Source of the DNA: Botryllus schlosseri
Lineage: Eukaryota
DNA: 64,000 nucleotides
NCBI GenBank assembly: GCA_051294905.1
Contig: CM119371.1
Span: 1,056,001-1,120,000 of the forward strand
Direction: 5' to 3'
Shown here: in pieces, positions 12,001 to 33,516 of the stretch
Layout of the letters: every line of letters begins with the position of its first letter
How positions within the stretch are numbered: the first letter of the stretch is position 1
Position numbers and translations under genes: made by a program
The notes under the pieces: generated by a model
What the model saw: the letters and a program-made list of their open reading frames with translations, nothing else
Told to the model about the DNA's origin: nothing
Database searches by the model: none

Positions 12001-15000
12001 TCCTTCAACAATTTCCTGATGCTTGGTGCCCGGTCAGTCACAACGGTTTCAATCGGCAAACCTTGAGCAAGTAATGCATCCAAGCACGCTCCATACCAAC
12101 TTTTTCCATTGCAACACTGCTGGAGCACTCTGTTTTTTGAACCAATTCGACGTGGACAATCTTCTCAGTCTTCTCCTCCATAAATGAATAAACCATATAT
12201 TTTGCAGAAAACCCAGGTGAGTCCGATCGCCCATCACCCATCAGTGTAATTGGTTTACATTGACCCTTCATGTCCCGTAAAACATCCTCCATATGTTCCT
12301 CATAGTAGGTCGCAATAGTTGGCAAAATGTATTGCGATTGTATTTCATAAAAACGACGTTCCGAAATGTAGTTAGTGTCCAGTAATTTGAAAACATCTGC
12401 AATATCAGTGTACGTGGCTCCCGAATATATTGTCGCGCCAACAGTAGAAAGGTTCATTGCCGACATCTTTCTGATTTCTATCTTGGTCGACGAGATTCCT
12501 ATGGCACTAAACCACTGTCGTCTTAGTGCAATTTCAGAAGGAATTTTATGAAGAGTATGCGATTCGTCATTCCTTTTGACATCACACGATGTAACGGCAC
12601 AACTTATCCATGTCATTGCAGCTTGCTATTATGTCTATGTATATTCTATATACTATTACGAAGACTCTGAGTAGAGCAAGACAATAACGTAGACAAGTGC
12701 TTTTCAACCTTTTTGAGCTCCATTCGTACTTTTTTTAAAAACAATTTAATTCGCACCAGCCAGCTGGAATTTATTACACAAAAAGAAAATGAAAAGCTTA
12801 TCACTTTTTGTATTTGTAGACCTTCCTGTAGGTACAGAGCGTCATTATTTCACATTTAGTGTATCGTATTGCTGATTAATCAAATACTAAAATCACTGCA
12901 GTAGAAAAATCACCGATATCGCACTTCCGCTGTTCTCAAGGTCTTCGTTGCTTTTTCTGCGGGTATCGTGCAGTTATTTCTTTCGAAGCTTAAAGGGCGA
13001 ACCCATGAACAATATTCACTCGCAACAATATCACTTTCCACTAAATCGACGTATTATGTCAACGCTATATGAATGTGTGCCGAAATTCCAATACTTCGCA
13101 TTCAAATCAACACTGGCATCGCACACTATTTCCTATAATGTAGGGTTATCATATTTTGGATTCGGGAAAGGAGGACGTTCGCACAAGTACGAACCGTCAT
13201 ACAGGTTGAAAAGCACTTTATTCTGTAGCCGTTTTTCAGAGAAACAGTAATTTCTTATCCACAACACGAATACCACCAGTCAGGGTTCCCCATGAACATG
13301 ACAAAATTCATGACATTCAAAATTGGTGGTTCGGGTACTGTAGGAAAATTCATCATCCCTAACCAAAATCCAACGGCACGCAAACCTAACCTGAGCCCAC
13401 AACTCCGCAGCTGACCCTAAAACATATATAATATATTCATTATATTGTAATGTTACTAATCCCCAAGCCATAATTTTAAGATACTCTCAAACCCTCATCT
13501 TATGATTCTCCAACCTGAATGCGAAACCAATTATGACCGCTCTGAATTTTGAAATGTTCAGAGGGCACACTAATTGGTGATGGTAATGTTTTATACATAA
13601 CATAAGAATAGGACATGATCTATTCCTTCCCTCAAGAAATAGAATACACTAGGCCCGATTACTAGAAAAATCTAGTGACTGAATATCGTCCGTGGAACGC
13701 CGTATCTACACCACCTTGGCGTGTTAGACATATTTGCTTCAGAACATCGGCTGACTTCTATCTGAAGCTCGTCCTCTGCGTGACTGCGTAATCGCGTCGA
13801 GCAAGTGCGACGATGAAGTCATCGTGCCATGTTACGGGTTAAGATATTATCCGGAGCCGCGACTGCTGCAACTCTAGAAATTTCAATAAATTGCAGCTCC
13901 ATTACGGTGGCGTTCTGAAGAAAACGGCTGCGGCCAAAATTTTTTTTTCGTTATACTCTTCAATTTGAGACCACATCATTTTTTGAGCGCAGTGCCCCTT
14001 TAATCTCTCTGAGGCATACTGCAGCTATTGCAAAAAGAAATTCAAGTTTTCAACTAAGACTTCATCAGGCTAGATCACACATTTGTAGAGATGTTATCCC
14101 AGTCTTATCTCCTATCTTAGCTTAATATACTGGGGCCAGAACCTTTCCGCATCCTAATGTTCATCAAATGCAGTCGAACAGTTTTGAGCAAGTGAAAATG
14201 TAACTGCGAACAAAAATTTTGTAATTAGTAGTTATCGGGAGATTCTTTGCTTTTGCATTTATTTCAATTTTACACACCATATTGGTATCATCCTTATCGC
14301 CTTACCAATTACATTTTATTGACCTTACTCAGCTCCGAGTATTCGTTTGAGTACATTTCATTGACTTTCTTGTATCCTATTCGCTATTAGTCGTTGCCAG
14401 TCGCTCGAACTTTTGATTGTTAGTAGTCGCTTACAAAAATTTTCTTTTTTTTTTGTATTTTTCAGAGCCAATGACTAGGAATACTTTGAATACGTTCAAG
14501 TTTTTTTATTTCTAATTAAAGGGTATTCTGCATAGTACGAATCATGAATGAAACATGAATAGCTTGAGATTGTTGCTAAATACGTCGCTACAGTTCAGTG
14601 TTGGGATCAAGTCACTACCTTCGAGTCACGAGTCATCTCGAGTCATTGCACATTTTGACTCGTGTCAAGTCAAGTCAAATGATTTTCGAAGGTGACTCGA
14701 GTCAAGTCAAGTCACTCGTTTTTTGGATGTGACTCGATTCACGTCAAGTCAAGTCAAGTTAAGTCGAGTCACGAGTCAAGCCACAATTCAAGTCAAATTG
14801 AATTTTCGAAGTATCAGCGACGATTCAAAGTCATTACATTTTGCTAGATGTGAGAAAGACAGGTTAATTATCCATTTATCTTGCATCAAATAATGAATAT
14901 AAAGTTTTGTATGCATGCAAGAAGGCGTTGTGTCTATCACGCACACGTAGACCCGCAAAAAAATAGGCGACTAACTGTATAGCTATGCTACAGTCTGTTA

Positions 15001-18000
15001 ATATCAGCCAATAGGATCGAATACGAAGCCTCGTGAAGTTGTAACAAATTGATATGGTACAATACACTACCATCTACACATCCGTGAGAAAACAAACATA
15101 TCAACTATATTCACCAGATTTAAATCATACAAGAGGGGTTGGTAAAGGTAATCAATGGGCCATGCTAGCACACGCTGTTGTTGAATACTTCTTCTTCTAC
15201 TACTATTACTACTACTACTACTACTACGACAACGTAACCTATGATCATTTCGCTTGTGGTGAATGTATTTGTGATTCAATAATGGAGGATCATTCAAACG
15301 TACATTCCTCTGAATGCCTGGTTACTTTCACAAGTGACACAAGGTATCGCTAAAAATATGAACATACACAAAATAAAGGGATTTAATTGATAGCGTTTAC
15401 TTGATGACTTGAAATTGAGTCGTAAATTTTGCTCAGAGTCACGAGTCAATCCGCATTTTTGAAGCGCCAAGTCAAGGCAAGTCATTTCTGCAAATTGACT
15501 CGAGTCAAGTCAAGTCATACGAAAAATTTGACTCGAGTCATCCTAACACTGCTAAAGTTGTCAAAGATCACCTGAATAGCGAATCAATCAGACTTTCACC
15601 AGTAATTGTAATTATAATTGTACTTACATGTTCAGCAGTAGTTGTAATTGTAGTCAGGGTTCTAAAGACTCGAGTCACGATTTTCTGATGACTCGACTTA
15701 ACTCGAGTGATTTTCGCAAAATTCCGAAATGACTCGACTCAACTCGAGTTAATATGTGTATTGATCCGACTTGGACTCGAGTCAATACGCATGACTCGAA
15801 CCAAGTCATATGACTCGAGACTCGCCAACCCAAGACCGACATTTCATTGTATTTTCAAAGCATAGTTAAGTGACCACACTATTGGTATTTCGCCTATTGA
15901 TACTGGTAAGCTGCTTGAAAATGCGATCAAAAACTGCTACAAGTGAGGAAATTTAATATATTACGAATGCGAACCATTTGATATCAACAAACTGGGTTTT
16001 AAGAAGTGGGTTACCAAGAATTTACCCGGAAGCCGAGAATTCAACACAATCACTTGGACTTGAGTCATAATGCCATGACTCGGACTCCACCCTCTGATCG
16101 CTGACTTGGACTCGGTGGTGAATTGAAAATGATTCGACTTGACTCGAGTCAAAACTATGAAAATGAGATTAACTTGTTTCTCGAAGCCTTCGTGACTAGG
16201 TTACAACCCTGATGGTAGTTGTAATTTGATAATTTAGCATAGAGTAATTGTAATCTTGTGTAATTAAAACATGCAACAAAGTAATTGTAATTGAAATTGA
16301 ATTCAATTAATTTAATCGATTCAACACTGGAGATGGCCCTATATTTAAATTAATACAAAGTGTACTAAATTGCGCGTAGCGCCGAGAAAAAATTTCAGTA
16401 GCATAAATCTGCTATTATTTTTTATGTTTATTTGGAAAAGATTTTGAGCGTACTTCAAGCCTTCAAAACTATGGACTTTGAGGTATATATTAAAATTTTC
16501 TTCCAGACACACCAACGTGTACAGTGAAATCCCGAACATGTCCCGGAAAATCCAGACGTATACCAATCCTAGTAACTTGAGAATTTCGGACAATCATCCG
16601 TGTGCGTATTTTTCAACAAGAGCAATGTTATTGTGATGCAACGATGCGTTCGGATCATACCCACACCGCACTGCGATGATCTAAATCAATGGTGTCAAAG
16701 AAACCGAATGTTGAGTAATATTGATAGGCCAAATTATACCCAGTTACCCACTCTAGTGACAAAATGTGAGCACCGAGTTCACAGGTTTGTGTAAAATTGT
16801 ATTGCGAAGTATTTCTTCATTGAAGCGAAAACGCAATGCAAAATCGTTATATACAGGTCACACAGAGATTAAAAAGTGACAAATCATGGTGCTAATATCT
16901 GTTTTCGCAGCGCTAAGTCAGTTTTTGGTCAAACGGTCCCTGTCCTCCACACAAACCTGAAACGGGATTCAATATTGCTGAGCCAAATTCCAACGTCACC
17001 GTTTATAGTTAAATCTATCTTATTTCTCACAGCATATAGTCAGGGCTAACGCCAGATCAGAACTGAAACAATAAGAGAGCGTAAAAGCATACCACCTTAA
17101 ACCGTCGTTAGGGCCATTGCTTCAGCTGTTTATATATCTATTCAACACGCAAATTGTACTTTTGCCAAATTGATTGCTTGCGAATAAAAGTGTTACTAGA
17201 TTAGAACTCATATCATCCGTCACATAATGTAATATACTATCTTGTACACCGGCTTCATAATAAAGTAGTACAATGGCAAAATAGGGCATTGGATTTGAGA
17301 TAACATTTTGGAAGAATTCGACTGGTCCAGCCAACAAACTATCTGTAGGTTTGAATCCAGCCTGCGACGCAAGTTGAGTTTGAACACCCTGATTTCAATC
17401 CTACTCTTATATCAAGACTCCAGCATTAAATAGGTAATATGTCTGAAGATAGGAAAACTAGTATTCGATGCACGATGCGATTTTAGTTGACTGATATGCT
17501 ATTCTGATTTTTTTCTCCGGTGACCTGTAGTCCCCCGCTTGAAGTCACACTACTTATTGTGGACGGCCTTGAACTCGCATTTTGATTATAGGGTCCGTAC
17601 ACATGGCACTCGCTCGGGCCCGACATGCGACTTGAAATAGCCTATACCTACCGAGCCACATATCAATTCAAGTATTTTATGCTTGAACTCACTTGTATTC
17701 TTTTTTCAATACTCCCAGTAATGATCGCCAAAAGCTCTGCATTAATGCTGCAGTCATATAAATTCAAGCGATACAGACTTTCACTCCTTACTGCAAGCGA
17801 TCCGACAATATGAGCCTCATCGCGACTCAATGAGATGCCAGATGCATCAATATCGGAAATTTGTCTCATAAGATCGTCGTCTCCCGATTCATAGATTGCT
17901 GTATACAGTTCCATGCGAACGTGGTTGTCCTCTTTCTTCTTGAGTTGCGAACGAATTGATCCACCAAGAATTTGTCTTTTCAGTGACCGATTTGAGACTG

Positions 18001-21000
18001 TCAATCAAATAATGCACCTCACTATATCATATTACAATCGAGTAAAGAGAAACAACAGTTTTCCCTAAGGCACAGCCATGGAAGGCGTACTTGCTCACAA
18101 ATGTACGCCTGTTTTCACAACGATACAATGAATCCATGACATATGTCATTGTTGTAAAATATAGATCCTAAAGGCGAATCGTTAAAATTTCCAATTGCCT
18201 GTCGCAGATTTTCCGGCTGTCTACGTATATGCGACTTTATGTACGCAGACCGACAGAATATGATACAGTTCAGATTGGATTGATCTCTTATTGCATTGTC
18301 ACAATAGTGCGATAGAGCATGAATTCAATAAGCTCGCTGGATCCGTACCCACCATATTGTCAAGCGTGAGATATTGATTTTCTACATTTAAATTAATCGA
18401 AATTCTTTTGCAACTTTGCAAAATATATAATTTTTACCACTATTGAATGTAAACATGGAATGGCAACGAAAAAATGGCCAATTACGCTGAGTGATTGTTC
18501 GGAGCAATGAACGATCACAGCTAGTAACCTTGACTCAAAAAGCCTAAGACTCGGTTCACAATTGAGTTACTCAGATACTTAAAATATGACACGACCAAAC
18601 TCGCTTATAAAGACGGATAATTCACAGACTTGTGTTTAATGGGAGTTTTCTTATGGATTTATGTTTTATCATATATTTTGCAAATTGCTCGCAAGCGTCT
18701 TTCGTCGTTATGTACCTGGCAAATGAATGCCGGCAATCCAAGATGTGAACTAACCATTAGGCTTATCAGTGTCAATATCAGTTAGTTAAAAGAGTTATGT
18801 AGTATACTGCTTAAAAAATAGGAAAATCTGGCATGGACATGAAAAGTGTCGGTGAAAATATCACTGTAATATAATTTTGTTTTGCGGGTTTTGCAATGAC
18901 CAAGTGACAAATACGGTTTTACTGCATTCTATCCGCCTTGAAATTGAATCGATAATGTTATCGGTAAACGTATTCAGGGATAAATATGATCGTTCTGCAT
19001 TGAATGAAGTAAATGCATCGGGATAATTAAGGGCTACTACGGTAACATATGTCTCATAACTATCCGTTTTATGGCTTTCAACGTCTTGAAAGTAGCAGGA
19101 ACACGACCACGAAAAACGATATCCTCCATTGAGACCCACCTTCATGAACATCATCCGGTTTTTCATCGTAAATGAGGCCGCACACAAATCTGCGGACGAC
19201 CGCCCATCGCTCTTTGTGCAGGTGTTTAGAGTTGAAGCTCATGAACTTTTTACGCGTCATTTCCACTACAAAGCCCGCTGCAAGGAATTCCTGGAGACTT
19301 TGATGGCAGAAGAAGAAAATGAAACTGCCATCCAACAGATTGCAACTGAGGAGGTTATTTCCTGGAACCTTCATCATGAGATCTTGAACTTCATCTTTTG
19401 AAAGTCTAAACCTCTTCAAATCATTTTCAGAGAATGTCACTCTCCCTTCTTTCATGCCAAGATATGCCATTGCTTTCAATTTATTGATAATCCCCGCAAT
19501 AGCATCAGCCTTTCTAATGTTTTTCACGCTACTTAAAGTGGATATAATTTTTTTGTAGAGTCCTGTGACCGTCTTGGGAGGAGGCTCGTTCGGATTTTTG
19601 GCCATGATCACAGCGGTTAAGACCAGAAAAACGGGAATGGAAACTAAATTGATCAGCCTTGGTGACATCGTTTCTATCCTCGCCCATGCTTCATCCCCAT
19701 GATCATGTATAAGAAACACAAAAAGCTTCTTTGCGTCATCTAGATTCAGACCAGAAAGTGTGATGATGTCGGTGGGTCGAGCTTCCGCGGGCAGATCCGA
19801 GACTTGGAATTCGCGGGAAGAGATGACGATCTTTGTATCAGCGAGCAGATTACGTGAGAGGATGTTGTACATGATCGTTGCTGCTTTGGCTTTACTATAA
19901 GGATTTATGTTCTCATCGCCATCTCTGTTGATTTTCCAAGTAGCCTGATCCAAGCCGTCGAAATATAAAACTGCTTCTGATTGATGTTCAAGCAACCACT
20001 GATACGCATAATCCTCGTCGATCTTATTCTGAAAGAGGCCTCCGAAGAGAAATTTAGATGGTTTCATGGATCTTTTATCTCGCATGCCTTTTATTTCTAT
20101 ATAATGTATCAATTTATACTTGAGCTGAGAGGGGCTTGCAGTGGCTCCTGTATTCGTGAGTGAATGCCCTAAAGTTTTTCTAGCGATTCTGCGCATGAGA
20201 GTGGTTTTCCCAGATCCTGCAGACGCAACTATAGCGGTGATAGAACTTTCCCCGATGATAAGTTGCTGCAAAACTTCATCTAGCTCGATGAATTTGTTGT
20301 CGTCAACTTTTTGTCGGAGGAATCCGAACTCCTTTCTGAATTGATTTTTAACCACCTCTTCCTTTCGCCAGAAGAAGAATTTTTTTTTTACTGCCACTTC
20401 CATTTCGTGCACCTCTTCATAATTGCCTTTGAAATATCCCGACTTAGTGACTCTTCTCATCTGGGGATGTACTTGGAAATCAGGTTTGTTGAGGTCGTCG
20501 GCGCCGATGTCTTCGAGGATTCTGTCCGCCGTCTTTTGAGACGCATTATCGTTTATGCATTTTATCAGGGCTGAAGCTTTTTCTGGAAGATAACAATATT
20601 CTTTCTTCATTATATTTTATGTATAGAAATGATCGGACAAAATCTATTACCTCTGTTTGGTAATATTTTATATAACCTAGAACCCAGGTATTAAAGAAAG
20701 ATATAGAGATTTATATAGTGAATATTGCTGAATTCAGTTCGGTAAACCCGGTACCCTAAATTTACCAAGATATCAATTCATTATGGTTGAGTACAGCATC
20801 GTAAATGCCGATAATTCAAGTCTATTCGTTTGTACGAACTTACGCGTAAGTTCCTCTCTCGCACCCATTCTCGGTATTGGTATGGAACCCCGCGGCCCTA
20901 GTCTGCCGAGATTTCCCACTACTTGCTTACTACCTCAAATTTTAGTGACTGTTTGTTATTATCTTCGTGTGCGCACTGCGCAGCATGCGAGAGTGGAGCT

Positions 21001-24000
21001 TATACGCGTAAATAGAAGCGAAAAGACTTCCATTATCGGCATTTACGGTTCTATACCATTACCGGTACCGAGAACGGCCAATGCCAGGAATGTAACTTAC
21101 TGAGAAGACACCGAATTTGGCAAAGCCGTCATGCACATGCACATGACCTGTATATTAGGATCTTCAAAAATGACTTTTTTTCTCAAATCGTACTGGCTAC
21201 TTGATAAAATCGTTAGGTTGCCTAATTTAAGCATACACACAAAATTCGGTTCAATTCCAGCCCGTAGTCTCTTTGCTATAGGAGAAAAAAGTTTATATTT
21301 ATTCTAAAAAAATAAATGTTTAAAAAATTGAAAATTTTCTGTTCACCCCATGAAAGTGTTAGGCCGTCTAGAGAAACGATGTTCACCAAATTTGGTTCAA
21401 TTTCAACCAGTGGAAGCGAAGTAATTGTCGAAGAAAAATTTGGATTTGAATAAAATACCGTAGTATTTACGGTGGGCGCTACTATAATAAATAATTAAAT
21501 TGGGTAACCTAACAATTTTATCAAGTAGCCAGTAGTACGATTTGAGAAAAAAAGTCACTTTTGAAGACCCCTACTGTTTATATGCATAACATGCCTGCAT
21601 TGCATACTTTGCATTCTCGGTAACGGTTTCCTCGGTATTGACAGGACACCGGCCGGCGGGCCACATTATCAACCAAGACTGGAAACCCGCGGGCCGTATG
21701 CTGCCCGCCTCTGAGCTAGGCCATCATATAGCTCTTTATGCAAATCGAAGAGAGTAGAACCATACTAGAAATAGTTTACAGCATGTTGTTGAATCACTCC
21801 TTGACATTATTATGCAATATTTGATGAAAATTGCAGCAAAAATTGGCTACGAAAAAAAGAGGAAAGTTGCAAAAAGTTGCACTATAAAATACCGCCAAAC
21901 AGTTTAAAACACCATAGTACATAGATTATGAGTATCTAGAAAGCTTTTGGAAGCGGTAAAATAGTCGACATAGTATACTAAACCACAGCTACTCTACTAT
22001 ACTCGAAAAATTACGGTACTCATTTACTATACATGCACTGTGCCACAGTGGTTCTCAACCTTCTTGATCTCGTGGACCGCTTGAACTTCAAAACAAATGT
22101 TGAGGACATGTGATCCTTCAAAAATGTAGAACAACTTGTCCATATATCTCTGAGCTCTTATTGCTAGTTACCATTTGACAAAATTTGTCATATCTCAAAA
22201 TTTTATCCGGCCTTGTTTGCAACATGTATCCTCGTATGCAGTGATTTATGATAATTCATGTTGAAATACGACGATCACGCTACCTCTGGTTTATTTCCAC
22301 AAAGCGTTTCGAACTAGGTATTTTATCCCACAGCGAATAGTGTGTCGAAATCTAAGAAAGACGCACTGTACCACTTTTAAAAGTGAGAGTGAGAGTGAGA
22401 GCCAGAGCCAGAGCCATTTGTGTATTAAACATGATTAAATGATTAAATAAATATATTTGTATTTGATAGCTGAAAATCAAATCTTCATATTATTTCTCCA
22501 TCATATATAATAAAGGATGATACTGTTTAGTGTTGTGGCCTGCAACCTTGCATGAAGTTTTTATAATATGGGTTGCTTTGATTGAAATTTGGAATACGTT
22601 TATGTTAAATTTATTGGACCAGATAGTATGAGCATAGTGTCCTATATGGTGTGGACACAGCGGAAGTAAAGGGTTCGTTGCATTTTGGTTAGGTCATACT
22701 TTCCATTTGACCAAAGGCAACTTTACGGCCATTTTTTATCGTGTTGATGAGCGCCAAATTCAATAAAACGGGGATCAATGGAAAGCTATTGCTATACTGA
22801 TTCCGAAAATACAAATATCATTCTGTTCATGGTCCTAGAACCCCCATAATTAGTATAGAAAACTGCATTGTTCTCAAGTTTTGTCATTGTGATGCAACAA
22901 AACTGTCTCTTTCTTCTGAGCTTTACTCTCGTTTTGCCAGACGTAGCGTTAATTAGTCGAGTGCTATTCGGGCACGATTCAAAACTATTTCCAATAGTGA
23001 AGTCACTTAACCCAAAAATACCAACCAGCCTTTGAACTCTTACCACTTGTTTTTACTACTGTCCTAAAAATATGGGGATACCAGACCCAGGCAATTTTCG
23101 AAAGGGAGCGCTGCATTGGGAAAAAGGTTACAAGAACAACTGTACTATAGCATCCACCATAATACCATGTATCACTTTTGTTTAAAAGTATATGTAGCAT
23201 TCACATAAAATCTGTCCAAAACGAGTTGCGGGCTACTTATGAGTCGCCTCATATAACACTTACACGAAAACCTGATAAAGACAAGAAATTTGCTATCAGA
23301 ACCGAGTGCAAAAATACGTCCTAAACCCTGAACTATTTTCATCTTTAAATTAGGATAAATAGATTTAATACATTTGGTGGACCGGCACTGATCGGCAGCT
23401 GAGAACCACTGCTGTACAGTACATGTACACTACATGATGTAGGCTACTGCTCGTGCAGGATGTGTGCTATACATGGGTACTGGATTTTTCTCAGTAACTA
23501 CATGCCAATTTCAGGGTATGTATTATACATGGGGCGTAATATACATAAAAAATTACAGTATACCGTAAACCGGGGTTACTTTTGACTCAAGGGTAACTTT
23601 GGACACTAAGCAGTAAAAGATTTAAATGGTTATTAAATGGTTGCCGCTGAATGTCAAATTCTTTTTCATGAGGCAACAGTACCACAAGTAGTCTCAATAA
23701 AAGATGGATTCATTTCACTACAAGATAAACTTGAGCCAACATTGATAAATTAATGGCGGGGGTCAATTTCATCAAAATTGATGGCTATTAAACTTCTCAC
23801 CAATAAACATTAATAGCATGTGATTCATAGACACAAAACTTGGCAACAGATACCTCTAAGTCAGGGGTCACCAACACGCGGCCCGCGGGCCGCATGCGGC
23901 CCGCCAAGTCATATTCTGCGGCCCGCGACCTGATTTGAGATTTCGGATGAAAGCTAAGAAATCCAATTTCAAATGCTGAACTTGACTACAGTTTCAACAT

Positions 24001-27000
24001 GTTGTTGTTGCTGTTTCAAAACAAGCTATTCTCCTGTACCCAACATCACTATTCGTCACTAGCTGAAACGGCTGTGGTGATGGCAACAGCATTCCATCGC
24101 GGGGGAATCTGCTGATATGAATGGGCATATTGCCTTGACTTTCAATGGCCCAAAAACACTGCCAAGACCGAGACGCTTAGAAACGGCTTAGGGCAGTAGT
24201 TCCCAAACTGGGGAGTGCGAAAGCATCTGAGATGCGCTCAAATGCGGAGATGCGCTCAAATGAAAAAATATTCACGCTCCGCGCGATTTACCTCATATTC
24301 ATAGTTATTGCTCTGTGTATAGTCCGGAATTCATCTTATAGAATGCTCTCATCAACAGCCATAACCTTCTATGCCATCAAACTAGCCGTTGGGATTGCTA
24401 GCATTCTGGTTGCATTTTGTGATATGACAATTTTTCAGTATCATAAAGGGTGTATGTCTAAAAAAGGTTTGAGAACGACTGGATTAGGGCTTCCCCATAA
24501 GATCAAGCTTTACGTGGAGATGATCTTTCAGCTAGTAACGTATCTCGCTGGTCCCAATATCGATTCCTTAGTCGCTGAAAAGCGTTCCTATGTATCGTAC
24601 ACAGCTCACAGTTCAAAATAAAATAAAATTGATGATTATGGTTTTTTGTTGTATTTGTATTCATTTAATAAAATATTATTTCTTTTGTGGTCAATATTCC
24701 CATTGCCTATGTTAGGTAGCTCACCGTTGTACTGAAATAGAGTTTTAGAACGTGGTGCCTATTTTACATCGATATCGAATTAATGCGGCCCGCGGCCTCT
24801 ACGAAATTTGAAAAGTGGCCCGCGGTCCGTTTTGAGTTGGCGACCCCTGCTCTAAGTAGTCCTAATCCATGGCAATAATCTCAGTGGGCTCACCCTTACA
24901 TCAATACAAGAAAATGTGATGTCCAAAGTTACTTTGGACAGTGGAAAATGTGATATTTAGAGCTCTGGAAAGTGGATGCTTCATCTGTGGCAAAGTGTAT
25001 CGTCAACTATATTTCTTATGACCGGCCTGATGGCTTTTTAAAATGGAATGAGAAGATTAATAAATTAGAGTTTGCCAAAATATCAAAAATGGGTAGGCTA
25101 GGCAATGAGGTGAGATAGTGAGATATTGTAATCGGGTGTAAGCTACTTGAAAAACATATCACATATGGTACTCCTACAGATGCACCTGCAGAGTAAGGGA
25201 TATCGTAAATTACGATAAATATATCTATCAGAGGACATAGGAAAGGGAAAGTGTATCTTTTAAAGAACAGTAATATATCTGAAATCGGCAATAAATCACG
25301 GTAACATGCTTAATGTATGCTGTCGATTGCTGACACTGCCAGTGGGATACCCCTTATCTTTATATGTCATTTATAAGTCCTAATGGGTGAAGCCATTGGG
25401 GAAAATTGAGAGAAGAGATGAATAAGGGGGTATTAGCCTACCTAATTTGTGTTTTTTTTTTGGGGGGGGGGATTAGGTAAAAATCATGCCATAGGCCAGA
25501 CACATACTATTTTGTTTCAGTTTTAGCCGCTGCTCTCATCAACTCTTACCAAATAAACCTCATTTACGTGGTTTCATAAACAGTAGAATTAAATAGTATA
25601 TTCATATTGAAATGAACCCGAATATTTTCGGCTGACACTCGTCAGGGGTAATCGTCAGCAACTAGTAGAGAATTGGAAAGAACATTGTATATCAACAATC
25701 GTATCACAAAATATGACGTCACCAGCATGAAATTTCGAATGAGAGAACGTTCAATGTACTATTTTTAGGTGATACACGAACTCCTTTTGTTGACAGAGTT
25801 TTGGTTGGTGTATTTTGATAAAAGTGTCAGCCGAAAATATTCGGGTTCATTGCAATATGAATATACTATTTAATTGTATATTGAAGTTCTGTACCTCCAA
25901 GAAGCTCTTCAAATAAACAGTAGAGTGTAAAGGCATACAAAAACTACATTTTCCACAGTTACCCCACAGTTACCCCATCAAGCAATCTGAACTATCTTGC
26001 TTAATTCTGCATGGAGTTTTATTTTCCGTCATGGTTTGAAATAAAAAGGCACAATTCCATTGTTGATGGTGCTAAAAACTTCTGCAACATAGTTTTCCAT
26101 ATTACAAAGCTTTCTGATACACGAATTCGCAACCTTGCACTACCTTTGCTACAAGGAAAAGCATATTTTGCACATCCGGATAATGTCTTTTGGGAATGCT
26201 TGGTGATGATGATGAAGGCCTCGGAAGACTTGCAAGATTTCAACTGTGAGCAGATCAAACAGAATACCAGATTCCAATTAATGACTTTGAAGGAGGATAT
26301 GTTAATGAAACGAAACCTAAAAACAACGTTGACACTAGAATCAGATTGTTTAAAATCCCAATTATGAACATCAAGGCCAAATCATACCACTAAATTGTCA
26401 ACTTGAATCTAAAAGATATGGAACAGCCACCAGCAATCAAAAACTCACCATATCTCGAGATGGAAAATCTAAGGTCATCTCCTCAAAATCCTTGGCACAA
26501 CCAGGCAGTGGAAAGAGACGTTAAAGTGGTGACCAAAGCATCTGCCCATGTGTCGGGATTTAAACGTAGAGATGACTTAATCAGAGAAAAACTGAAGTCT
26601 CAAAAACAGATGAAATCTTTTAATACAAAACAAGATTTCAAAGTTTGTGCAGACTAATACTCTGGTGGTGAAATCATCTTCGAAATATATCTTTTTCAAT
26701 ATGGAATTGATGGTTTTGTGTTTTCAATATGAATTAACAATTTATGTGTTTCCAATATGGAGTTGTCAGTCATAAGATCGATGACTACACGCTTTTGGCC
26801 TCGTACCCTGCTTCAGTGCCTAATTTTACCGAAAAATGGTCTAAAAATCAATAATTTGCTCATAACTTTTTTTCTGTTCATTTTTATGACAAAGTTCTGT
26901 GGAAGTGAGATAGAAACTTGTTGCTTCTGCATCTTTTGAGCCCAAAATCAGCTTTCTAGAGGAAGCGGTCATCAATATATAGCGAAATTAGCTATTTTTG

Positions 27001-30000
27001 GCTCGTTCGATGCAATTGCACGACCACTAGAGGGTACACGAACCCAAAATTATTATAGAAATTATTTTTTTTTAATTTGGCACCACATATCAAGTGTCCG
27101 TTTTAAAATTCAAAATTTTCCATTTTTCACTCCACCCTATTGGACACGGATAATTTACAAAAATGAAGTACAGATTTATAACAATGAAAATTTTTGATTA
27201 GGTCATTCTAATCTTTGTTTCATGACCCCTGAAAAACACATAACTTGCCTCCCCTACACCCTAGCATTTCCAAGATACAAAGCGGAATTGTTGAAAATTG
27301 TCCAAAGTTACCCCGGTATACGGTACCACCCAATAACCTATCACATTTTATAAAGGGAATAAAACTTAGAACAGTGTTTAAAAGTGGGAGATTTTGAGAG
27401 ATATGAGTGAAAAAAGTGTTGAAGTTCCGGTGCCATACAAGCAAAACCAGTTGGCTAAATGTACACGTACACGGATACCATCTTCGTGAATACCACTGAA
27501 AAGTAGAAGCATAACGTTACTGATTACCTCTGGTCTAGTCTTTAAAAGAGCCAATAAAGATATTCTAAACTTTTTAATAGAGAGTTGAATCGAAAAAGTT
27601 TGGAAAACACTGACCTATAAGATATGAAGAGCATACTGTAGCAAAAATGTATACATCATTCATGATCAATATGTTGCCAGTAGCCTACTAAGCCCAGTAA
27701 AGATATGGTGATTAGGGGTAGGAAGTAATATTCATAGCCTGATTTCATTGAAGCTTTTTGTCATATTGATTGTTACTGAGTGATTCCATATCACTCATCA
27801 CAAATCACCCATTTAGTGATCACCCATTCGTGAAACTTAACTAATTTTATATTGAATCCTTGCAATGGTGACAGTCAGTCATAAAACATATTAGCCAGAT
27901 CACCTTGTCTAAACATAGTATAGAAGAATCTCTTGAACATAGCAATGAAATGAGCCCAAGAGTAGAACCTGCTTAGAACACAACAAGCCTCAAAACAAGT
28001 CAACGATATAAAATTGAAATATTTTTAGTGTAATTCTGTCTACACAAATATTACAAACGCTAGTTTTAAGGGGAACAAATCGCCTGCATCTGACTACAAT
28101 ACCCATTACTGTCACAACTTCAAAAGTAGGCCTAATTTATATTAACATCTCATTAGCTTAAAATTCAGCGTTACAATATATACAGCTTTCATATGGCAAA
28201 AATGAAAGGGATACTCCCGTGATTTCAATGAGCAATGACCTCAAACTTGAGTTATATGCTGGTTCCGTACACAAATAACACAAATAACTTAAAAGATATA
28301 GCTATGATAATATTTGTTGATTCACGGGCCTCAATTGAGTTCGGCCACTCAATTGGCCAATTGTGGGTTTAAGATGCGGCAGTTACGTATTGTGTTCCAC
28401 TACTAGAAGTGCTATATAGTGTCGCTTTTTTCTCTCTCCTGAGAGAGAGTGCCGCAAGGTCCAAAGGTTGAGAACTACTGATATAAAAGTCATGTTGTTA
28501 AAATATTCGAACCAGTCATGTCACTCTCCTAAATTAGGCTACTAGTCAGTGAATTCTTAGAAATTGCTGCTATTGGTATATTCTCGATTTAAGGCAGGGC
28601 ACCAAACTCAAACTCGGCCACATCGGTATGACGAGCCAGATATCGGCCTCACTCAATGCGATATTCTCTCCCAGTTCACAATCTAATCTATCCCAATCCA
28701 AATCTACGCGTCTAAACTTTGTTAGACATATTTCTCTATCGCCCTCATCGGACTCATATCACTATTCCACCCAAAGTTTTGTTATATTCTGGCAGTTACT
28801 GAAAAGGCTTCTGACCCCAGCGGCAGCTCAATCTCCTACACTGCAAAACCATTACTGCTGTATATTTTTCGAAGGAAACTGCTATACGCAGTTTGTTGCT
28901 GTTATTGTTGCCGGTACGGTACTCTCTTGTTATTGCATTATGACGTTTCTCACTTAACAGAAGGTTTAACCTTAGGTCACGGGAAAGTGATGCGGCCACC
29001 GTTCATTGCGTATGAATCATAAGCTGTATTAGTTTGTACTTTGAGCGGACATGAATTTCTATGTCCTAATTCAATCCAAATCCGACAAAATTTCACAAAT
29101 CCTGTTTTTTCAAATCCTAATCCATGCTCATGGCGTCCTTCTGGCGTTCCTTCTTCGCCAACGCCTCTACACCCTTGGAATATTTCAATAATGTTGTGTG
29201 CTGTTTTCTAGGTTATTTATAACCGAATATGTGCTCGTTAACGTTTGTTTTGTGTCGTTACTACCGTATCTTGCCTGTCTACTAGTTGTTTTTTATGTGA
29301 TTATTACGTCATAGACACAAAATAGTTATTACATTTCGAATCTGATCCACCCTATCACTGACGTTCGCTACTGAGGGTCAGTCGAAAAGCTTTTAGCGAA
29401 TAAATTACCAATATGATGTTATTGTTTCGCGAATGCGTAATTTAATGCCGCTACGCGGCACATACAGCGGATGCGACTGCCAATTAAACCACGTAATAGT
29501 TCGTCTGTCATAGATCATAAAAGAAAAGAATAAAATAAAGTGAAATTGATCGTCTTTGGGCGATTGATCATCCGAGACTGTAATAACCTTTTCAGCGTGC
29601 AAATAAGCAGGCTATGCGATGCCTGCCATGTTATCCCATTGTGTTTTCTGCAGATGTGGTCAGTAACGAAGTACTTCTACTATTTGAAGTACTTGAAGTA
29701 GATTTTGCCTACTCACACTACTTTTTAAGTAGTTATGATTTTAGACTACTTCTACTTCTACTTGACAGTTTTCAGTTTTGTATGCAAAAATATGCGTAGA
29801 ATACCTACTTACTTACTTACTTGTGAACCACCAATCCTACTTCTACTTGACTAGAAATGCCGGCGTTACTTCTAATTCTACTTGAGTAGCGACGGTGACT
29901 ACTTTCACCAACTCTGGTTTTCTGCTGAGTGAAGCATTAAACGAAAATCGTTCGGGATACGCGTGTCATCTGTTGAGCTCCATTTTTTGATAAAATGCAT

Positions 30001-33000
30001 CAGTTAAAAGGTTGATTGAATACTAAGGTGTGGAGGTTTTGTAAGAGAAGGCATATGTAAAATCCATCATTGTGAATTGGAAATTGTACTTTGTAATGAT
30101 GCGGAAAGTGCCGCCAGATAAAGATTGAAAGTTGTAACTAAGTCGCATGGTTTCGAGTCATAAGTCAACCTCTTTCTTATAGTTTTGCCTCGAGTCGAGT
30201 CGTCATTTTCAATTCACCACCGAGTCAAGTCCGAGTCCAAGTCATTGTGTTGGCTTCTAATTTTCTACTGAAAGACTAGTTGCGCCCACTTTTTATAACT
30301 CTGGTGCAGATATGCGGTAATCGTGATTAGTAATCGAAATCCATTACGACGATTACAGCATTTGAAAATAATCGTAATCGCAATCGATTACATTCGAAAA
30401 AAATCCGAAGTAATTGCAATCGACTACTTCACATATCTAATCGATCTGTTTGTGAAAGAACTATTACTTTTCATTTGTTCAATGCCCATGACATAAACTG
30501 AACATTCGTGAACAATGAAGAGTGCGATTTGAAACAGGTTTTGGATAGCAGAAATGTCATATGGTCAAACGCCCCTGCTCATTATTGCGTTACTAGTATT
30601 GGCTCTTCATTGCGTAACGAATTATCCGCACATAGTAAATAGATATTCGTTATACATGTAGTACTGTGATTGTAAGAAAACCCGCTATGATTATGTCAGA
30701 TTATCACTACGCTGCAGACGCCACTACCTTGCAGCAGGATAATAATCACCGCTCTGCCTAGTTTCGAATAGTATCGTATGTAGGCCCACTAAGAATTGAT
30801 GTTTTGTTATACTTAGGTGAACGCAGTTTAACAGTTGATTGGCTAGCGGTAGGCCTATCTACGTTTACACCGGGTAAAGATTTGATATTTTTTACTCGTC
30901 AAATCGTCATGACAATTTATACATCGAAGCATTAACAACCAACGGCTGCTGATAAAAAATCATAACTGAGCCGTTATTATCCATTACTCGTATACCGACT
31001 AATTATTTTTCTGTGTATGACATGCAGGAAATACGTTGACGAGCTAAGACAAAATATTGCACTACATTCTGCGTGCATTAATCTCTAATAATTACCTGGA
31101 AAGAGCTCGAATGTGAATCTAGTTTATTTCGTTAATCAACATGAAGTAGAGTGTTTGGGACACATTTTATTTTTCTTCAAAGTTTTCCCCGCAATTCCCG
31201 CGTATATAGTCCATCTTTGACCCGCGAAACGTAAAACGCCCAGGTCCGCGCAATGCTTATCGACAGACGTTCAGGGGACCCTTAATTTCCAATGAGTTAC
31301 AAAACAAAACTCTACCACATGTGTCCATACCATATATGTGTGGAAATCAGTAGGACAACCAGTAAAGATAGTTAAGCTGACTTGACAAACCACACATTTA
31401 TTTAGTTGATAGTCAACTAACTAATAGTTTTTTGAGTAGTTTTAGTTCTAGTTGATGATTTTGAAAGTTGAGTAGTTTAATTTCTCGTTGTAGCTGCGGA
31501 TTGTAAAAACTGACTAGTTGCAGTTCTAGTTGTTTTGAAGATTTTGAAAATCTGGTAAATCTAGTTATTTTTACATAGTTGCGAGTTTTAAAAAATGAGT
31601 GGTTCTATTTCTAGTTGACCTTTTTTACAACCCAAGAGTTTGTACAAGTTTGGTTTCTGGTTGGATTTTCAAGTACCAGTACCAATAGACGAAATTACAA
31701 TGGAATGTCGGTCTTGGCCGTCTGAGTCTCGACTCATATGACTTGGTTCTAGTCATGCGCAATAACTCGAGCCCAAGTTGACTCAGTACACAGATTGACT
31801 CGAGTGTAGTCGAGTCATTTCCATATTTTAGGAAAATGAATGGGGTCAGGTCTAGTCATCAGAAATTCGTGACTCGAGTCATTATAACATTGCCCCACAT
31901 ATATATACACGACCAATGTTAACGATGTGGTGCAGCTGCATCATGGGACATTTGGCGACAATGACCATTGATTTTATGAAACAGGATGTACTACATAGTA
32001 CCGGATAAAACACTTACGTTGGTCTTGTGCAATAGCGTCAATTCCAGAATTCATAATGTAGTTGATGGTGGTCTTGTTTCCGTGAATTTGATCTCCTGCC
32101 ACAACGTTGACCGAGCTGTTTATGATCCGTTGATTGATGTATTCGCCTTCTGCCAAACTTGCAGATCCTGAGACACGCGAGAATATTACGTCTGATATTC
32201 CGGTTCTCATTTCCATATACTCATTTGAAAGCATTTTTAAATCAAGTATCGATCATGGAAACTTCCCATAATTTCTCCTTAATATTAGGTTATGCAGCGC
32301 TCGAATATTAATATTATATTTCAATAATTTAATTATATGCTTTGTGGTACGGAAATTGAATATAGCTTTCAATGTATTCATAGTAGTAGAATATTTATTG
32401 AACTTGAAGAATTCTAGGGTGCCTCTTTTCGAGAGTTAACGGCACACCAAAAAGATTTTAACACATTTAAAAGTAAAACCAAAAAGGCTAAGTATGACAC
32501 AACAATCAAAATCACAGACCATGAGATTCGCATTGTAACTATGATACCTATATTAAACTTCGAAGTGAAGTAAGGTATGGTTGCCAAAAAAATCGGCCCT
32601 GGGGAATTTTGTATTAAAATGTATAACCAACCATTAATATGAGATAATTACATAATTATACTACTATGAAGTGATTCGCAGTTCAGGGTATGCGTAGCTC
32701 GCGAGAGATACCGCGGATATTTACGAGGCCGAATTAACATGGTAAATTCGGCCCTGGGAGAATTTTATATTAAATGTATTCCCAACTATTAACATGAATT
32801 GCACCATTATCTTATTATCAAGTGATTTGGAGGTCGCGGTATGCGTAGATCATGCAGTCACGGGCGATAACGCGAATATTTACGGCTCCGAATACATTTT
32901 AATAGAAAATTCATTTTTATGCAAAATTCATCGACGGCCAAATTTACCGAGGGCCGAATTTCCGAGGGCCACTAGTAACCCACGCCCCGAGGTCATATAG

Positions 33001-33516
33001 CGTAATTTATAAATATACAGTTGCAAACACGAAACAAAATAAACTAAGGATAAATTAGTGAGTTGTGGACAGAATATTTTTGTCAGCATAAATAGGTTTG
33101 TCAATTGAATAAGGGTATAGTTCAACACTGTTAAATGAAACAAAGATCTGCCTAGCGCAATGACAGTGAATACATTGTCATCAATTATAGTGTTGTGTGC
33201 AGGCTAGATTTTCACTTGAATGTTTAGCATTCGACGAAGCATATGCTTGGAGTAATCCTCATAAGAATATGTTTGGGCAGCTAATTTGCATTGGCGTGCG
33301 AGCTCTACGTGGTCTATTTGCGAATGTTTTATAGCGAATCGATTCTTGATTATGCTGCTTTATACGCTCGAACAATCCGTGCTAACTTTAATATGATTTC
33401 ATAGGATATAGATATGAACTCAAATGTTCTAGCAATTACTTACTGCTTCCTTCAGGTAATAATGGTGGAGGCACATCATCGACACCAGAAATTCGCTCTT
33501 CTCCCCCTTCCGCCAT
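1..33516 (-). CDS. Multi-exon NLR-like gene (short N-terminal motif + NACHT + divergent LRR-like region); 3' end uncertain, probably beyond the window start
   Basis: Hand-built exons: 33516-33444, 32167-32018, 20582-19140, 19084-18923, 17997-17693, 8192-8088, 5560-5459, 4964-4809, 3032-2949, 2813-2646, and probably 25-<1. All junctions are GT-AG, phases match (1,1,1,1,0,0,0,0,0,0), and there are no in-frame stops over ~916 codons. Confidence 0.75.
322..2241. mobile_element. hAT Blackjack-like MITE, interrupted by the foldback element at 378-1968
   Basis: Termini TAGTGTTACCG...TGGTAACCCTA with subterminal GTCCT motifs. A related reverse-strand copy lies at ~38026-38390. Confidence 0.5.
378..1968. 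mobile_element. Foldback non-autonomous DNA transposon with ~460-bp inverted arms
   Basis: 378-~838 is the reverse complement of ~1488-1968 (GGGGTGTT...AACACCCC). It shares the CCAAATTTGGCTCAATTCCAACCAGTAG motif with elements at 7088, 21156 and 57118. Confidence 0.8.
2646..2813 (-). CDS. 56-codon exon [10 protein letters not shown]...ACQQKK
   Basis: cattttag|TTG ... AAG|GTAGTA, 168 nt (2x28 codons), phase 0-0. Confidence 0.65.
2949..3032 (-). CDS. 28-codon exon [28 protein letters not shown]
   Basis: gtgttcag|ATA ... CAA|GTACGA, 84 nt (typical size of one RI-type LRR unit), phase 0-0. Confidence 0.65.
3741..4075 (-). mobile_element. Diverged end fragment of the Kolobok family element
   Basis: AAAAATGATGTGGTCTCAAATTGAAG...CAGCCGTTTTCTTCAGAACGCC matches the TIR, and the match continues into sequence specific to the right end (reverse complement of ~13600-13990, e.g. 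GGCCTAGTGTATTCT). Confidence 0.75.
4809..4964 (-). CDS. C-terminal exon [17 protein letters not shown]...KLEK
   Basis: attttcacag|GAT ... AAG|GTGTTA, 156 nt, phase 0-0. Confidence 0.6.
5459..5560 (-). CDS. Divergent LRR-like exon [15 protein letters not shown]
   Basis: attcag|GTT ... AAG|GTTTGA, 102 nt, phase 0-0, open frame. Confidence 0.6.
7088..7943. mobile_element. Palindromic hAT-type MITE
   Basis: Long inverted arms; termini GGGACTGTT/AACAGCCCTG; flanks aagcagag/atgcagtg (6/8 TSD match). Confidence 0.7.
8088..8192 (-). CDS. LRR-like exon [20 protein letters not shown]
   Basis: cag|GTG ... AAA|GTGAGA, 105 nt, phase 0-0, LRR consensus VxxVxLxxNxF. Confidence 0.7.
9602..10585 (+). pseudogene. 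KolX-like / P2X7 ballast-like zinc-cysteine protein pseudogene
   Basis: Exons ~9602-9804, 9865-10156, 10408-10585. Motifs PYQFEP, WCSCLNC..M....[46 protein letters not shown]. An 8-nt insertion near 10053 shifts the frame, and there is a TGA at 10445-10447 where W is expected. The start codon was not identified. Confidence 0.85.
10895..12616 (-). pseudogene. Kolobok THAP-DDE transposase pseudogene
   Basis: Exons 12616-11951, 11894-11770, 11698-11470, 11388-11242, 11172-10895. Partial THAP (CAVTSC...IP...RRQW); motifs [44 protein letters not shown]. 1-nt frameshift at ~12082 and TAG at 11791-11793. Confidence 0.9.
11020..11104. repeat. Exact in-frame 42-bp tandem duplication in the transposase 3' exon
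   Basis: [14 protein letters not shown] occurs twice. Confidence 0.95.
12694..13219. mobile_element. hAT-type MITE nested in the Kolobok element
   Basis: AAGTGCTTTTCAACCT...AGGTTGAAAAGCACTT inverted termini. Confidence 0.6.
13283..13568. mobile_element. Old MITE with CCTAAC-like interior, nested in the Kolobok element
   Basis: Imperfect TIR GTTCCCCATGAACATGACAAAATTCA / TGAATTTTGAAATGTTCAGAGGGCAC. Confidence 0.45.
14596..15551. mobile_element. hAT-type MITE with (GAGTC/AAGTC)n subterminal arrays
   Basis: CAGTGTTGGGAT...ATCCTAACACTG; TSD ctacagtt/ctaaagtt; homologous to 45510-46419. Confidence 0.85.
15655..16211. mobile_element. hAT-type MITE with GACTCGAGTC arrays
   Basis: CAGGGTT...AACCCTG termini. 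Related decayed copies at ~30130-31890, 48530-49002, 52870-53370 and 61880-62500. Confidence 0.65.
17693..17997 (-). CDS. NLR HD2/first LRR exon
   Basis: Encodes [11 protein letters not shown] (HD2-like) and [11 protein letters not shown] (LRR LxxLxLxxCxI). Acceptor ttgacag|TC, donor CAA|GTGAGT. Confidence 0.85.
18923..19084 (-). CDS. Probable symmetric (phase 1-1) 162-nt exon after NACHT
   Basis: Acceptor ctactttcaag|AC after a 55-nt intron, donor A|GTAAAA, open frame [11 protein letters not shown]...RRIEC. Confidence 0.55.
19140..20582 (-). CDS. NACHT domain exon (NBD, HD1, WHD)
   Basis: Walker [14 protein letters not shown], Walker [11 protein letters not shown], sensor IVISSRE, HD1 [23 protein letters not shown], and [11 protein letters not shown]. 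Acceptor tcttccag|AA, donor G|GTGGGT; 1443 nt. Confidence 0.95.
21156..21573. mobile_element. hAT-type MITE
   Basis: TAGGATCTTCAAAAATGAC...GTCACTTTTGAAGACCCCTA, ~75-bp TIR, TSD ctgtatat/ctgtttat. Confidence 0.85.
22046..23411. mobile_element. hAT (Charlie-like) non-autonomous element
   Basis: CAGTGGTTCTCA...TGAGAACCACTG termini with GTGGACC subterminal motifs; TSD degraded. Confidence 0.6.
23862..24849. mobile_element. hAT Charlie-like MITE
   Basis: CAGGGGTCACCAAC...GTTGGCGACCCCTG with GCGGCCCGC repeats; perfect TSD CTCTAAGT. Confidence 0.9.
24194..24481. mobile_element. hAT MITE nested in 23862-24849
   Basis: CAGTAGTTCCCAAAC...GTTTGAGAACGACTG; TSD gcttaggg/gattaggg; homologous to ~47289-47599. 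Confidence 0.8.
25587..25875. mobile_element. Small palindromic non-autonomous element (unclassified)
   Basis: ~53-bp near-perfect inverted repeat AATTAAATAGTATATTCATATTG..AACCCGAATATTTTCGGCTGACACT. Confidence 0.75.
26011..26657 (+). pseudogene. hATm-type transposase C-terminal remnant
   Basis: Motifs [54 protein letters not shown], spread over shifted frames. Downstream end CCACCCTA at 27132-27139 (reverse complement of TAGGGTGG). Confidence 0.8.
32018..32167 (-). CDS. NLR exon 2 carrying an amyloid/RHIM-like motif
   Basis: Acceptor gtgtctcag|GA, donor C|GTAAGT, 150 nt, phase 1-1. Encodes [49 protein letters not shown]. Confidence 0.7.
32579..32979. mobile_element. Decayed relative of the 50976-52048 element
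   Basis: GGTTGCCA...TAGTAACC ends, CGGCCCT/GAGGGCCG subterminal repeats, shared ATGCGTAGATCA.GCAGTCACGG core. Confidence 0.6.
33444..33516 (-). CDS. NLR exon 1 ([24 protein letters not shown])
   Basis: ATG at 33516, 24 codons +1 nt, strong donor A|GTAAGT; phase 1 matches the acceptor at 32167. Confidence 0.65.

Follow-up and report, generated by a model that had tools for sequence, protein, structure and literature searches.

What stands at the N-terminus of an animal NLR that carries no recognisable death-fold domain? The question is raised by a gene on the minus strand of a 64,000-nucleotide stretch of Botryllus schlosseri DNA (assembly GCA_051294905.1, contig CM119371.1, positions 1,056,001 to 1,120,000; hereafter the window, with its features numbered from its first letter), in which a small exon, exon 2, is predicted to splice onto the exon encoding the NACHT domain. 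The original prediction, made from the letters of this DNA, saw in exon 2 an amyloid-signalling-like motif. Amyloid-type signalling by NLRs is established in fungi and bacteria, and to our knowledge it is known in animals only through the RHIM. Our best overall explanation, to which we give a probability of about 0.5, is that exon 2 encodes a homotypic motif common to NLRs and kinases, possibly amyloid-like. Judging from genomic sequence, the exon stands at the head of 87 or more NLR genes and of six or more genes for IRE1/RNase L-like kinases or pseudokinases. At the level of gene prediction, the observation of an NLR with a small motif exon 5' of its NACHT exon is confirmed, and the interpretation placed on it is partly supported.

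On the minus strand of the window, three exons join in frame at canonical splice sites, as had been proposed: exon 1 (coding part 33444..33516, with the ATG at 33516, 24 codons plus 1 nt, and the phase-1 donor A/GTAAGT), exon 2 (32018..32167; 150 nt, phase 1-1, coding for (R) plus 49 residues) and exon 3 (19140..20582, with acceptor ttccag/ and donor G/GTGGGT, both phase 1). Read directly from the window DNA, the exon-2 acceptor is tctcag/GATCTG and its donor GACCAAC/GTAAGT. The start of exon 3 at 20582 stands as first given, and its donor is placed after 19140, one base off the end previously implied. Intron 2 (20583..32017) is 11.4 kb long and repeat-rich. About 75 residues of the predicted protein come before the NACHT exon, and the motif lies at residues about 29-60, ahead of the NOD. 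Exon 3 encodes the NACHT-proximal region, the NACHT NTPase, a winged helix and HD2; it matches Pfam NACHT (3.4e-14, 53.4 bits against a cut-off of 26.7) and NOD2_WH (4.9e-5, 23.8 bits against 23.1), and NLRC4_HD2 below its cut-off (0.004). Other than NACHT/STAND, this exon gave only chance weak Pfam matches. With the NACHT match, a Walker A sequence (GSGKTT) and the winged-helix and helical regions, the gene is a NACHT-type NLR, that is, a STAND NTPase.

The absence of CARD, DD, PYD or TIR noted at the outset was borne out in the regions scanned, which were exon 2 and the first 117 residues of exon 3: no death-fold (CARD, PYD, DD, DED) or TIR match was found there with Pfam. None of the 62 minus-strand open reading frames (ORFs) of at least 40 aa in intron 2 matches Pfam at E<=0.01, so that no domain-coding exon was detected in that intron either. 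In paralogues the equivalent intron can be as short as 0.47-0.84 kb (C9:4683221 to 4683800; C2:31566524 to 31567467), which leaves little space for an additional domain exon. A homologue of exon 1 was found upstream of the motif exon in three of the seven other loci for which 1.5-kb flanks were available (L002, L004 and L008), with an intact ATG, ORF and GTAAGT donor in L002 and L008. The start of exon 1, MAEGGEE, resembles the start of the motif, LAEGENV. Two library ORF fragments (P0027 and P0037) start with MAEGE right at the motif and a third (P0033) begins four positions ahead of LAEGD, which raises the possibility that the start codon of some paralogues lies within the motif exon.

The motif exon is one of many. 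When the 49-aa exon-2 peptide was searched against the 495.5-Mb assembly in six frames, with all 140 candidates scored, at least 140 genomic copies came to light, and the three matches fetched from the weakest range (E 0.016-0.4) proved to be intact family exons too. Among 48 copies examined, 46 have an AG at the expected acceptor and 44 a phase-1 GT donor; no donor was called in L022, L026, L043 and L046, and the called donors of L025, L047, L036, L040 and L042 are doubtful. We aligned 40 of the 44 donor-bearing copies (alignment A1), omitting L025 and L047, which are short with doubtful donors, and L028 and L034, which are duplicates of L029. The consensus consists of a conserved motif and, behind it, a variable tail rich in Ser/Glu/Pro. 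In the motif, L4 and A5 show no variation, and A2, G7, S17, V19, V21, D25, Q26 and I27 are nearly invariant. In the window the conserved core, residues L4-N35 of the exon peptide, is encoded at 32061..32156 on the minus strand. The 27-residue peptide originally singled out (positions 32138-32058) lies almost wholly within this core, with a 3-nt overrun (Y36) at its 3' end. Its conservation held up; its extent did not, since the conserved unit is about 35 residues long and starts about six residues earlier, at LAEGE.

Conservation among the paralogous NACHT genes, another expectation of the original prediction, was found in the alignment, in the conserved splice sites and in the pattern of substitution. 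Over the first 28 codons of the 40 copies, the mean proportion of synonymous differences (pS) is 0.56 against 0.18 for nonsynonymous differences (pN). Usable dS values came from 665 of the 780 pairs, in which the median dN/dS is 0.196; dN falls below dS in 99.1% of these pairs, which are not independent of one another. Copies share as little as 43-50% identity. From these figures we conclude that exon 2 is coding in the stated frame and under purifying selection, and that it is very probably a real N-terminal coding module of the NLR.

In position, too, the exon is tied to the NLR genes. NACHT exons were listed from a search with the window exon-3 translation (P0002; 215 candidates, best 89 scored) and a search with Pfam NACHT (224 candidates, best 94 scored), together with three NACHT exons from fetched loci. 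With these lists combined, at least 87 of the 140 motif exons are followed on their own strand by a NACHT exon within 60 kb. At least 80 have one within 25 kb downstream, as compared with 3 within 25 kb upstream. Motif and NACHT exons lie at least 0.47 kb and at most 55 kb apart, the median distance being 9.1 kb. Twenty motif exons with no listed NACHT partner were read over 9.5 kb downstream, and in these we found four NACHT exons, two kinase exons and three sets of retroelement ORFs; the remaining 11 loci, and the retroelement locus L053, showed no other Pfam domain within that distance. Three further motif loci, read over 3 kb downstream, contained nothing except retroelement-like ORFs in L076. 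A short motif N-terminal to a NACHT receptor, one of the features of the amyloid-signalling-motif (ASM) class, is thus what the predicted genes present.

Five loci on C1 (L053, L054, L055, L058 and L069) carry tandem motif exons, 1.1-6.4 kb apart and on one strand; in L055 a single NACHT exon follows the pair. Being both phase 1-1, tandem exons could be joined as a double motif or used alternatively. They bring to mind HET-s, with its double repeats, and ZBP1, with its multiple RHIMs (Kajava et al. 2014, PMC4262963).

A second class of proteins appears to carry the motif. Pairing of coordinates places six motif exons on the same strand as a kinase exon that follows 1.0-4.9 kb downstream. Two of these pairs, at C3:21703802-21709741 (L061) and C3:21663592-21669106 (L062), combine the motif with an IRE1-like kinase exon that matches Pfam Pkinase at 3.4e-43 and 2.5e-38, respectively. 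In the other four (C3:20090095, C3:20181629, C3:57845 and C5:3175232) the motif exon was read and is a clear family member with splice sites. In both loci checked for splice phase, L061 and L062, the phase-1 donor of the motif exon (G/GTAAGT, G/GTGAGT) fits the phase-1 acceptor of the kinase exon (tcag/GTTGG, ctag/GTTGG), and the predicted join reads G-W-K/E, about 15-20 residues ahead of the kinase N-lobe. When the two loci were compared by tblastx, only the motif and kinase exons were conserved, in like order and spacing, with the kinases 49% identical. Rough arithmetic that ignores clustering puts the chance expectation, for 140 exons and 273 kinase candidates in 495 Mb, at about 0.2 motif-kinase pairs.

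The motifs of the two gene classes were compared as profiles. The kinase-type set (A2) comprises eight sequences, and hhalign aligns A1 with A2 over 34 columns with a probability of 99.4%, an E-value of 1.7e-21 and 47% identity. Searching with a kinase-type motif recovers NLR-type exons that match it over 30-31 residues at 70-71% identity; the exon of the window itself is recovered as well (E 0.0067). On these alignments we regard the NLR-type and kinase-type motifs as homologous. The search for a non-NLR class of proteins with the motif, which the original prediction had called for, has thereby led to protein kinases, and a homologous motif on a separate putative effector, a second feature of the ASM class, is present among the predicted genes.

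The kinase family itself is large. The search gave 273 candidates, of which the best 132 were scored, and at least 98 exons match at E<=1e-10, mostly on C3 and clustered at 16-21.7 Mb. Among solved structures, the kinase is closest to that of IRE1 (1.2e-26), then to OSR1 and CaMKK2, and is not close to the RIPKs; its end has a PFF-type motif, which we take to resemble that of IRE1. L061 retains VAIK, HRD, DFG and APE. L062 has HRN instead of HRD and a changed position of the catalytic lysine, and is probably a pseudokinase. At C3:46480-47822 (minus strand) the KEN/Ribonuc_2-5A model is covered by two exons, one matching positions 5-78 (E 1e-5) and the other positions 72-127 (E 5e-6). They lie 8-9 kb downstream of the kinase exon C3:55863-56693 on the same strand, a link by coordinates, and this locus at 55.8 kb of C3 is possibly a gene for a motif-kinase-RNase protein. 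At L061 and L062, the 3.5-4 kb of DNA that follow the kinase exon yielded no KEN domain. Three single-ORF genes of 1140-1198 aa, at C16:2820050-2821099 (minus strand), C7:13614409-13615521 (plus strand) and C14:12375423-12376538 (plus strand), encode a kinase plus KEN. We presume these to be the genuine genes of the IRE1/RNase L type and a possible source of the expanded kinase family.

What kind of element is the motif? Its composition is 14% N, 13.5% V, 9% I, 9% A, 8.5% S, 7% G, 5% Q and 0.6% P, and in A1 short conserved V/I-x-N/V stretches are parted by conserved G, G-D and N-K turns, a pattern that fits a strand-turn-strand or beta-arch element. AlphaFold2, given the 40-sequence alignment, returned a mean pLDDT of 58 and a pTM of 0.25, with no secondary structure and no helices, and we conclude from this prediction that the motif does not form a globular domain of its own. 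The exon-2 peptide matches no Pfam family at E<=1. A complex prediction with three window motifs and one kinase-type motif scored 0.02 (mark, 0.34) and is no evidence either way. A profile search of the PDB gave only two engineered scaffolds at E about 0.5, hence no structure alike in sequence.

Outside the genome, a profile search of 1.84 billion representatives gave 18 matches. Thirteen of them are short ORF fragments of 40-124 aa consisting of the motif and read-through intron, probably called without splicing from contigs of this or a related species. The other five are long repetitive proteins; the three that we examined (P0030, P0036 and P0040) were rejected as relatives, their SSVTVTAG-like repeats being chance resemblances, and the remaining two are P0031 and P0035. 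No homologous protein was found when the 49-aa peptide was searched against longer proteins, and a protein-atlas cluster search with it was uninformative (best score 0.81, unnamed clusters).

The nearest point of reference in animals is the RHIM (PF12721), found on RIPK1, RIPK3, ZBP1 and TRIF. Like it, the window motif is short, non-globular and strand-prone, occurs on sensors or adaptors and on protein kinases, and takes the place usually held by a death-fold domain. Unlike it, the window motif is N-terminal to the kinase, whereas the RHIM of the RIPKs follows the kinase, and the partner kinase here is closest to IRE1. Kajava et al. 2014 (PMC4262963) describe, in amphioxus, many RHIM proteins and a RHIM-NACHT-repeat protein, BF82280, with the same motif-NACHT-repeat layout as here, so that an animal NLR with an N-terminal motif of amyloid type is not unprecedented. 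According to the same authors, tunicates appear to be without RHIMs, and a 2025 eLife study (PMC12119088) reports no RIPK1 homologue in tunicates.

The fungal motifs (HET-s/HRAM, sigma and PP) and the bacterial BASS1-10 likewise comprise 20-40 residues at the N-terminus of a NACHT or NB-ARC receptor, with a homologous copy on a separate putative effector. The identity between the NLR side and the effector side is about 40-70% here; cross-seeding bacterial pairs share 43-56% in Dyrka et al. (bioRxiv 10.1101/2020.01.06.895854). In the fungal and bacterial systems the effector is a HeLo/Bell pore-former or a hydrolase, whereas the putative effector in Botryllus is a kinase, with the motif at its N-terminus and with sensor and effector genes apart. 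The likeness, known here from sequence and layout, does not extend to the Pfam HET-s, sigma and PP models, to which the motif shows no similarity. With the CARD, PYD and DD of vertebrate NLRs, the motif shares the N-terminal position and the presumed role, in which receptor oligomerisation leads to homotypic recruitment of an effector; unlike them, it is 35 residues long, with no six-helix bundle, no Pfam match and no predicted helices. In the IRE1/RNase L family, whose members are activated by oligomerisation, the partner kinase domain finds its closest relative, and one locus has possible downstream KEN exons. Unlike IRE1 and RNase L, the motif-kinase genes are without a luminal or ankyrin sensor part, and no KEN was found near L061 and L062.

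A module that is fixed on an NLR family and shared with a subset of kinases has the architecture of a homotypic motif, and homotypic docking is therefore favoured. The layout matches that of the RHIM on ZBP1/TRIF and the RIPKs, and of HET-s-type motifs on NWD2 and HET-S. On the sequence comparisons, we lean slightly towards a homotypic docking element between NLR and kinase. That exon 2 encodes, at the CARD/PYD position of the NLR, a non-globular, strand-prone homotypic interaction motif of about 35 residues seems to us an evenly balanced proposition. A true self-templating amyloid we consider less likely than not. Under homotypic docking, ligand-driven oligomerisation of the NACHT domains would gather several N-terminal motifs, which might assemble into an intermolecular beta structure and recruit motif-bearing kinases. 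With the motif only about 15-20 residues from the kinase N-lobe, the kinase domains would be brought into proximity and could trans-activate, by a logic like that of the RHIM (ZBP1/TRIF to RIPK3) and of NWD2 to HET-S. We infer four elements of this scheme, namely splicing as modelled, motif-motif binding, signalling from NLR to kinase and cross-beta assembly.

Several results weigh against this proposal. The motif lacks the hallmarks of the known families: none of the 48 copies (40 NLR-type, 8 kinase-type) has [IV]Q[IV]G or G-phi-Q-phi-G, the signature that Dyrka et al. (bioRxiv 10.1101/2020.01.06.895854) describe as common to RHIM, PP and BASS3, and the stretch equivalent to the RHIM core reads A-G-D-Q-I-x. 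None of the 40 A1 members matches RHIM, HET-s, Ses_B or NACHT_sigma at E<=10, with HMMER filters that drop many weak matches, and a genome-wide six-frame RHIM search gave three matches, none over the cut-off and none at a motif exon. Going by these comparisons, the motif is not a RHIM, in agreement with the earlier view that it was no canonical one. Seven of the 48 copies contain a proline within the first 30 residues, and the hydrophobic periodicity is not clean: the spectrum peaks only weakly, at periods 2.5 and 6, and autocorrelation is not evident. A hexapeptide or pentapeptide beta-helix repeat, which we also considered, was set aside on account of this unclear periodicity and the lack of a Pfam Hexapep or Pentapeptide match. 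Kinase-linked copies are few, 6 of 140, or 8 with L059 and L060, which have no kinase exon within 9.5 kb; set against at least 98 kinase exons, this means that most such kinases are probably without the motif. The pairs lie on C3 and C5 with no listed NACHT exon nearer than the kinase, so that kinase and NLR genes are not neighbours; we know of no such adjacency for animal RHIM proteins either. To these points are added the predicted nature of the junctions 33444>32167 and 32018>20582, the 47 motif exons with no partner among the listed NACHT or kinase exons, the sharing of one exon by two families, and the narrow distribution of the motif, all of which are taken up below.

Three other explanations could account for much of the same evidence. 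The motif might be a short linear docking peptide that gives NLRs and kinases a common binding partner (for instance a scaffold, adaptor, chaperone or E3 ligase), or else an autoinhibitory lid on its own catalytic domain. Its shortness, the lack of a predicted fold, its N-terminal place on two unrelated catalytic domains, the lack of similarity to RHIM, HET-s or PP, and its presence in only a minority of the kinase family would all suit such a peptide. We nonetheless think it unlikely, as 30-35 conserved residues, in which V/I alternate with N/Q/S and the G/D turns are fixed, are long for a linear peptide, tandem exon duplication suits stacking units better than a single docking site, and we identified no candidate for the common partner. 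A mobile leader, shuffled onto N-termini and spread with recent gene-family expansion, would have a generic role in stability, localisation or translation control, and its kinase copies would be accidental. Symmetric phase 1-1 exons shuffle easily, both families are massively and recently expanded in regions full of retroelements, 47 of the 140 copies have no assigned partner, and exon sharing between two families also fits the shuffling of a module with another function.

Against this leader, which we consider distinctly improbable, stand the strong purifying selection across copies with only 43-50% identity, the motif-kinase arrangement kept between paralogues whose kinases are only 49% identical, and the near-invariant position and orientation relative to NACHT (80 versus 3). 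Finally, the gene model could be wrong, with the NLR starting at the in-frame ATG at 20608..20610 (minus strand) and exon 2 either unused, a pseudo-exon or part of another transcript. This ATG lies 26 nt upstream of the exon-3 acceptor and would give a motif-less isoform, the Styela clava isoforms P0003 and P0004 start at the point equivalent to ATG 20610, and our junctions are predicted from genomic sequence alone. Yet the coding frame and splice sites are conserved genome-wide (dN/dS 0.20), the exon is consistently placed 5' with introns as short as 0.47 kb, and exon 1 is conserved with its ATG and donor. A motif-less isoform could, moreover, coexist with a motif-bearing one. A mistaken gene model is in our view very improbable, and the homotypic NLR-kinase motif remains the explanation that we prefer.

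The relatives of the NLR in Styela clava bear on the age of the family. Twenty best matches of the NACHT exon were listed, 17 of them named, and all 17 are S. clava NLR-like proteins; 16 share 30-36% identity over 97-99% of the query, and P0021 shares 28% over 88%. With P0005 and P0012 as tblastn queries (E 1.9e-8 and 9.7e-9), a downstream exon of the window gene, encoding a post-NACHT helical region with no Pfam match, was found at 17705..18004 on the minus strand; 3' of it, C-terminal repeat (LRR) exons were not located with S. clava tblastn or Pfam. Four S. clava proteins (P0009, P0012, P0016 and P0019) have long N-terminal extensions with I/V/N/Q-rich segments, containing one to three repeats of a GSASLLQTEEPTNVEI...-type module. 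By eye we noted GSASL...N.EI..S.I.I..G... modules and MA.Q.QQEG.NIVNIQ... leaders, and P0009 contains an IVQVGD stretch holding a RHIM-like VQVG tetrad. Homology of the window motif to these segments is a visual likeness that lacks statistical support, and we treat it as a lead only: comparisons with the S. clava NLR N-termini gave HMM scores near zero and hhalign probabilities of 2% and 0.6%. As homology to S. clava is not demonstrable, the motif family may be confined to one genus.

Repeats and mobile elements surround many of these genes. In the window, positions 25355-25911 and other parts of intron 2 have a summed contig depth of up to about 45,000 in four sequencing runs, as compared with 5-20 on the NACHT exon, which indicates high-copy repeats there. 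The contigs of these runs (X1, X2, X3 and X5) are short and DNA-like, extend over introns as well as repeats and contain no splice joints, and so carry no information on expression or on the exon junctions. Downstream of the NLR gene, ORFs at 11225-12625 (minus strand) and 9595-10095 (plus strand) have weak sub-threshold matches to THAP (3.8e-4) and a Mutator-like transposase (0.0064), and the same set includes a P2RX7_C-like ORF over the cut-off (4.3e-6); these are probably transposon-derived sequence. Elsewhere, ORFs for a gag zinc knuckle, protease/RT/RNase H and integrase lie immediately downstream of the motif exon of L060 (C3:21.79 Mb), and protease/RT/RNase H/integrase ORFs immediately 3' of that of L068 (C5:24.95 Mb). 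A sub-cut-off RT fragment in L053 (C1:8.5 Mb) and the retroelement-like ORFs of L076 (C8:3.92 Mb) are also 3' of motif exons. Retroelement insertions in long introns may have broken some motif-exon copies.

What does the motif mean for tunicate biology? We found no description of such a motif in tunicates in the literature collection that we searched, and within a known concept both the sequence family and the pairing with this effector are new. A wider picture, which we regard as doubtful, is that a chordate lineage reported to be devoid of RHIM and RIPK1 uses an unrelated, lineage-specific prion-like motif, by means of which scores of NLRs would serve as templates on which IRE1/RNase L-like kinases polymerise and trans-activate; a KEN RNase may be present in at least one of these kinases. 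Variant-matched pairs of NLR and kinase would give specificity, and the system would represent either an independent invention of animal amyloid signalling or its survival in unrecognisably diverged form, with a new class of effector. If the homotypic reading is true, it would show how a RHIM-less chordate couples its NLRs to effectors, it would suggest that kinases of the IRE1/RNase L type can be NLR effectors, and it would offer a short peptide pair directly usable for cross-seeding tests. The motif family itself provides a profile for annotating the domain-less N-termini of the expanded NLR repertoires of invertebrates.

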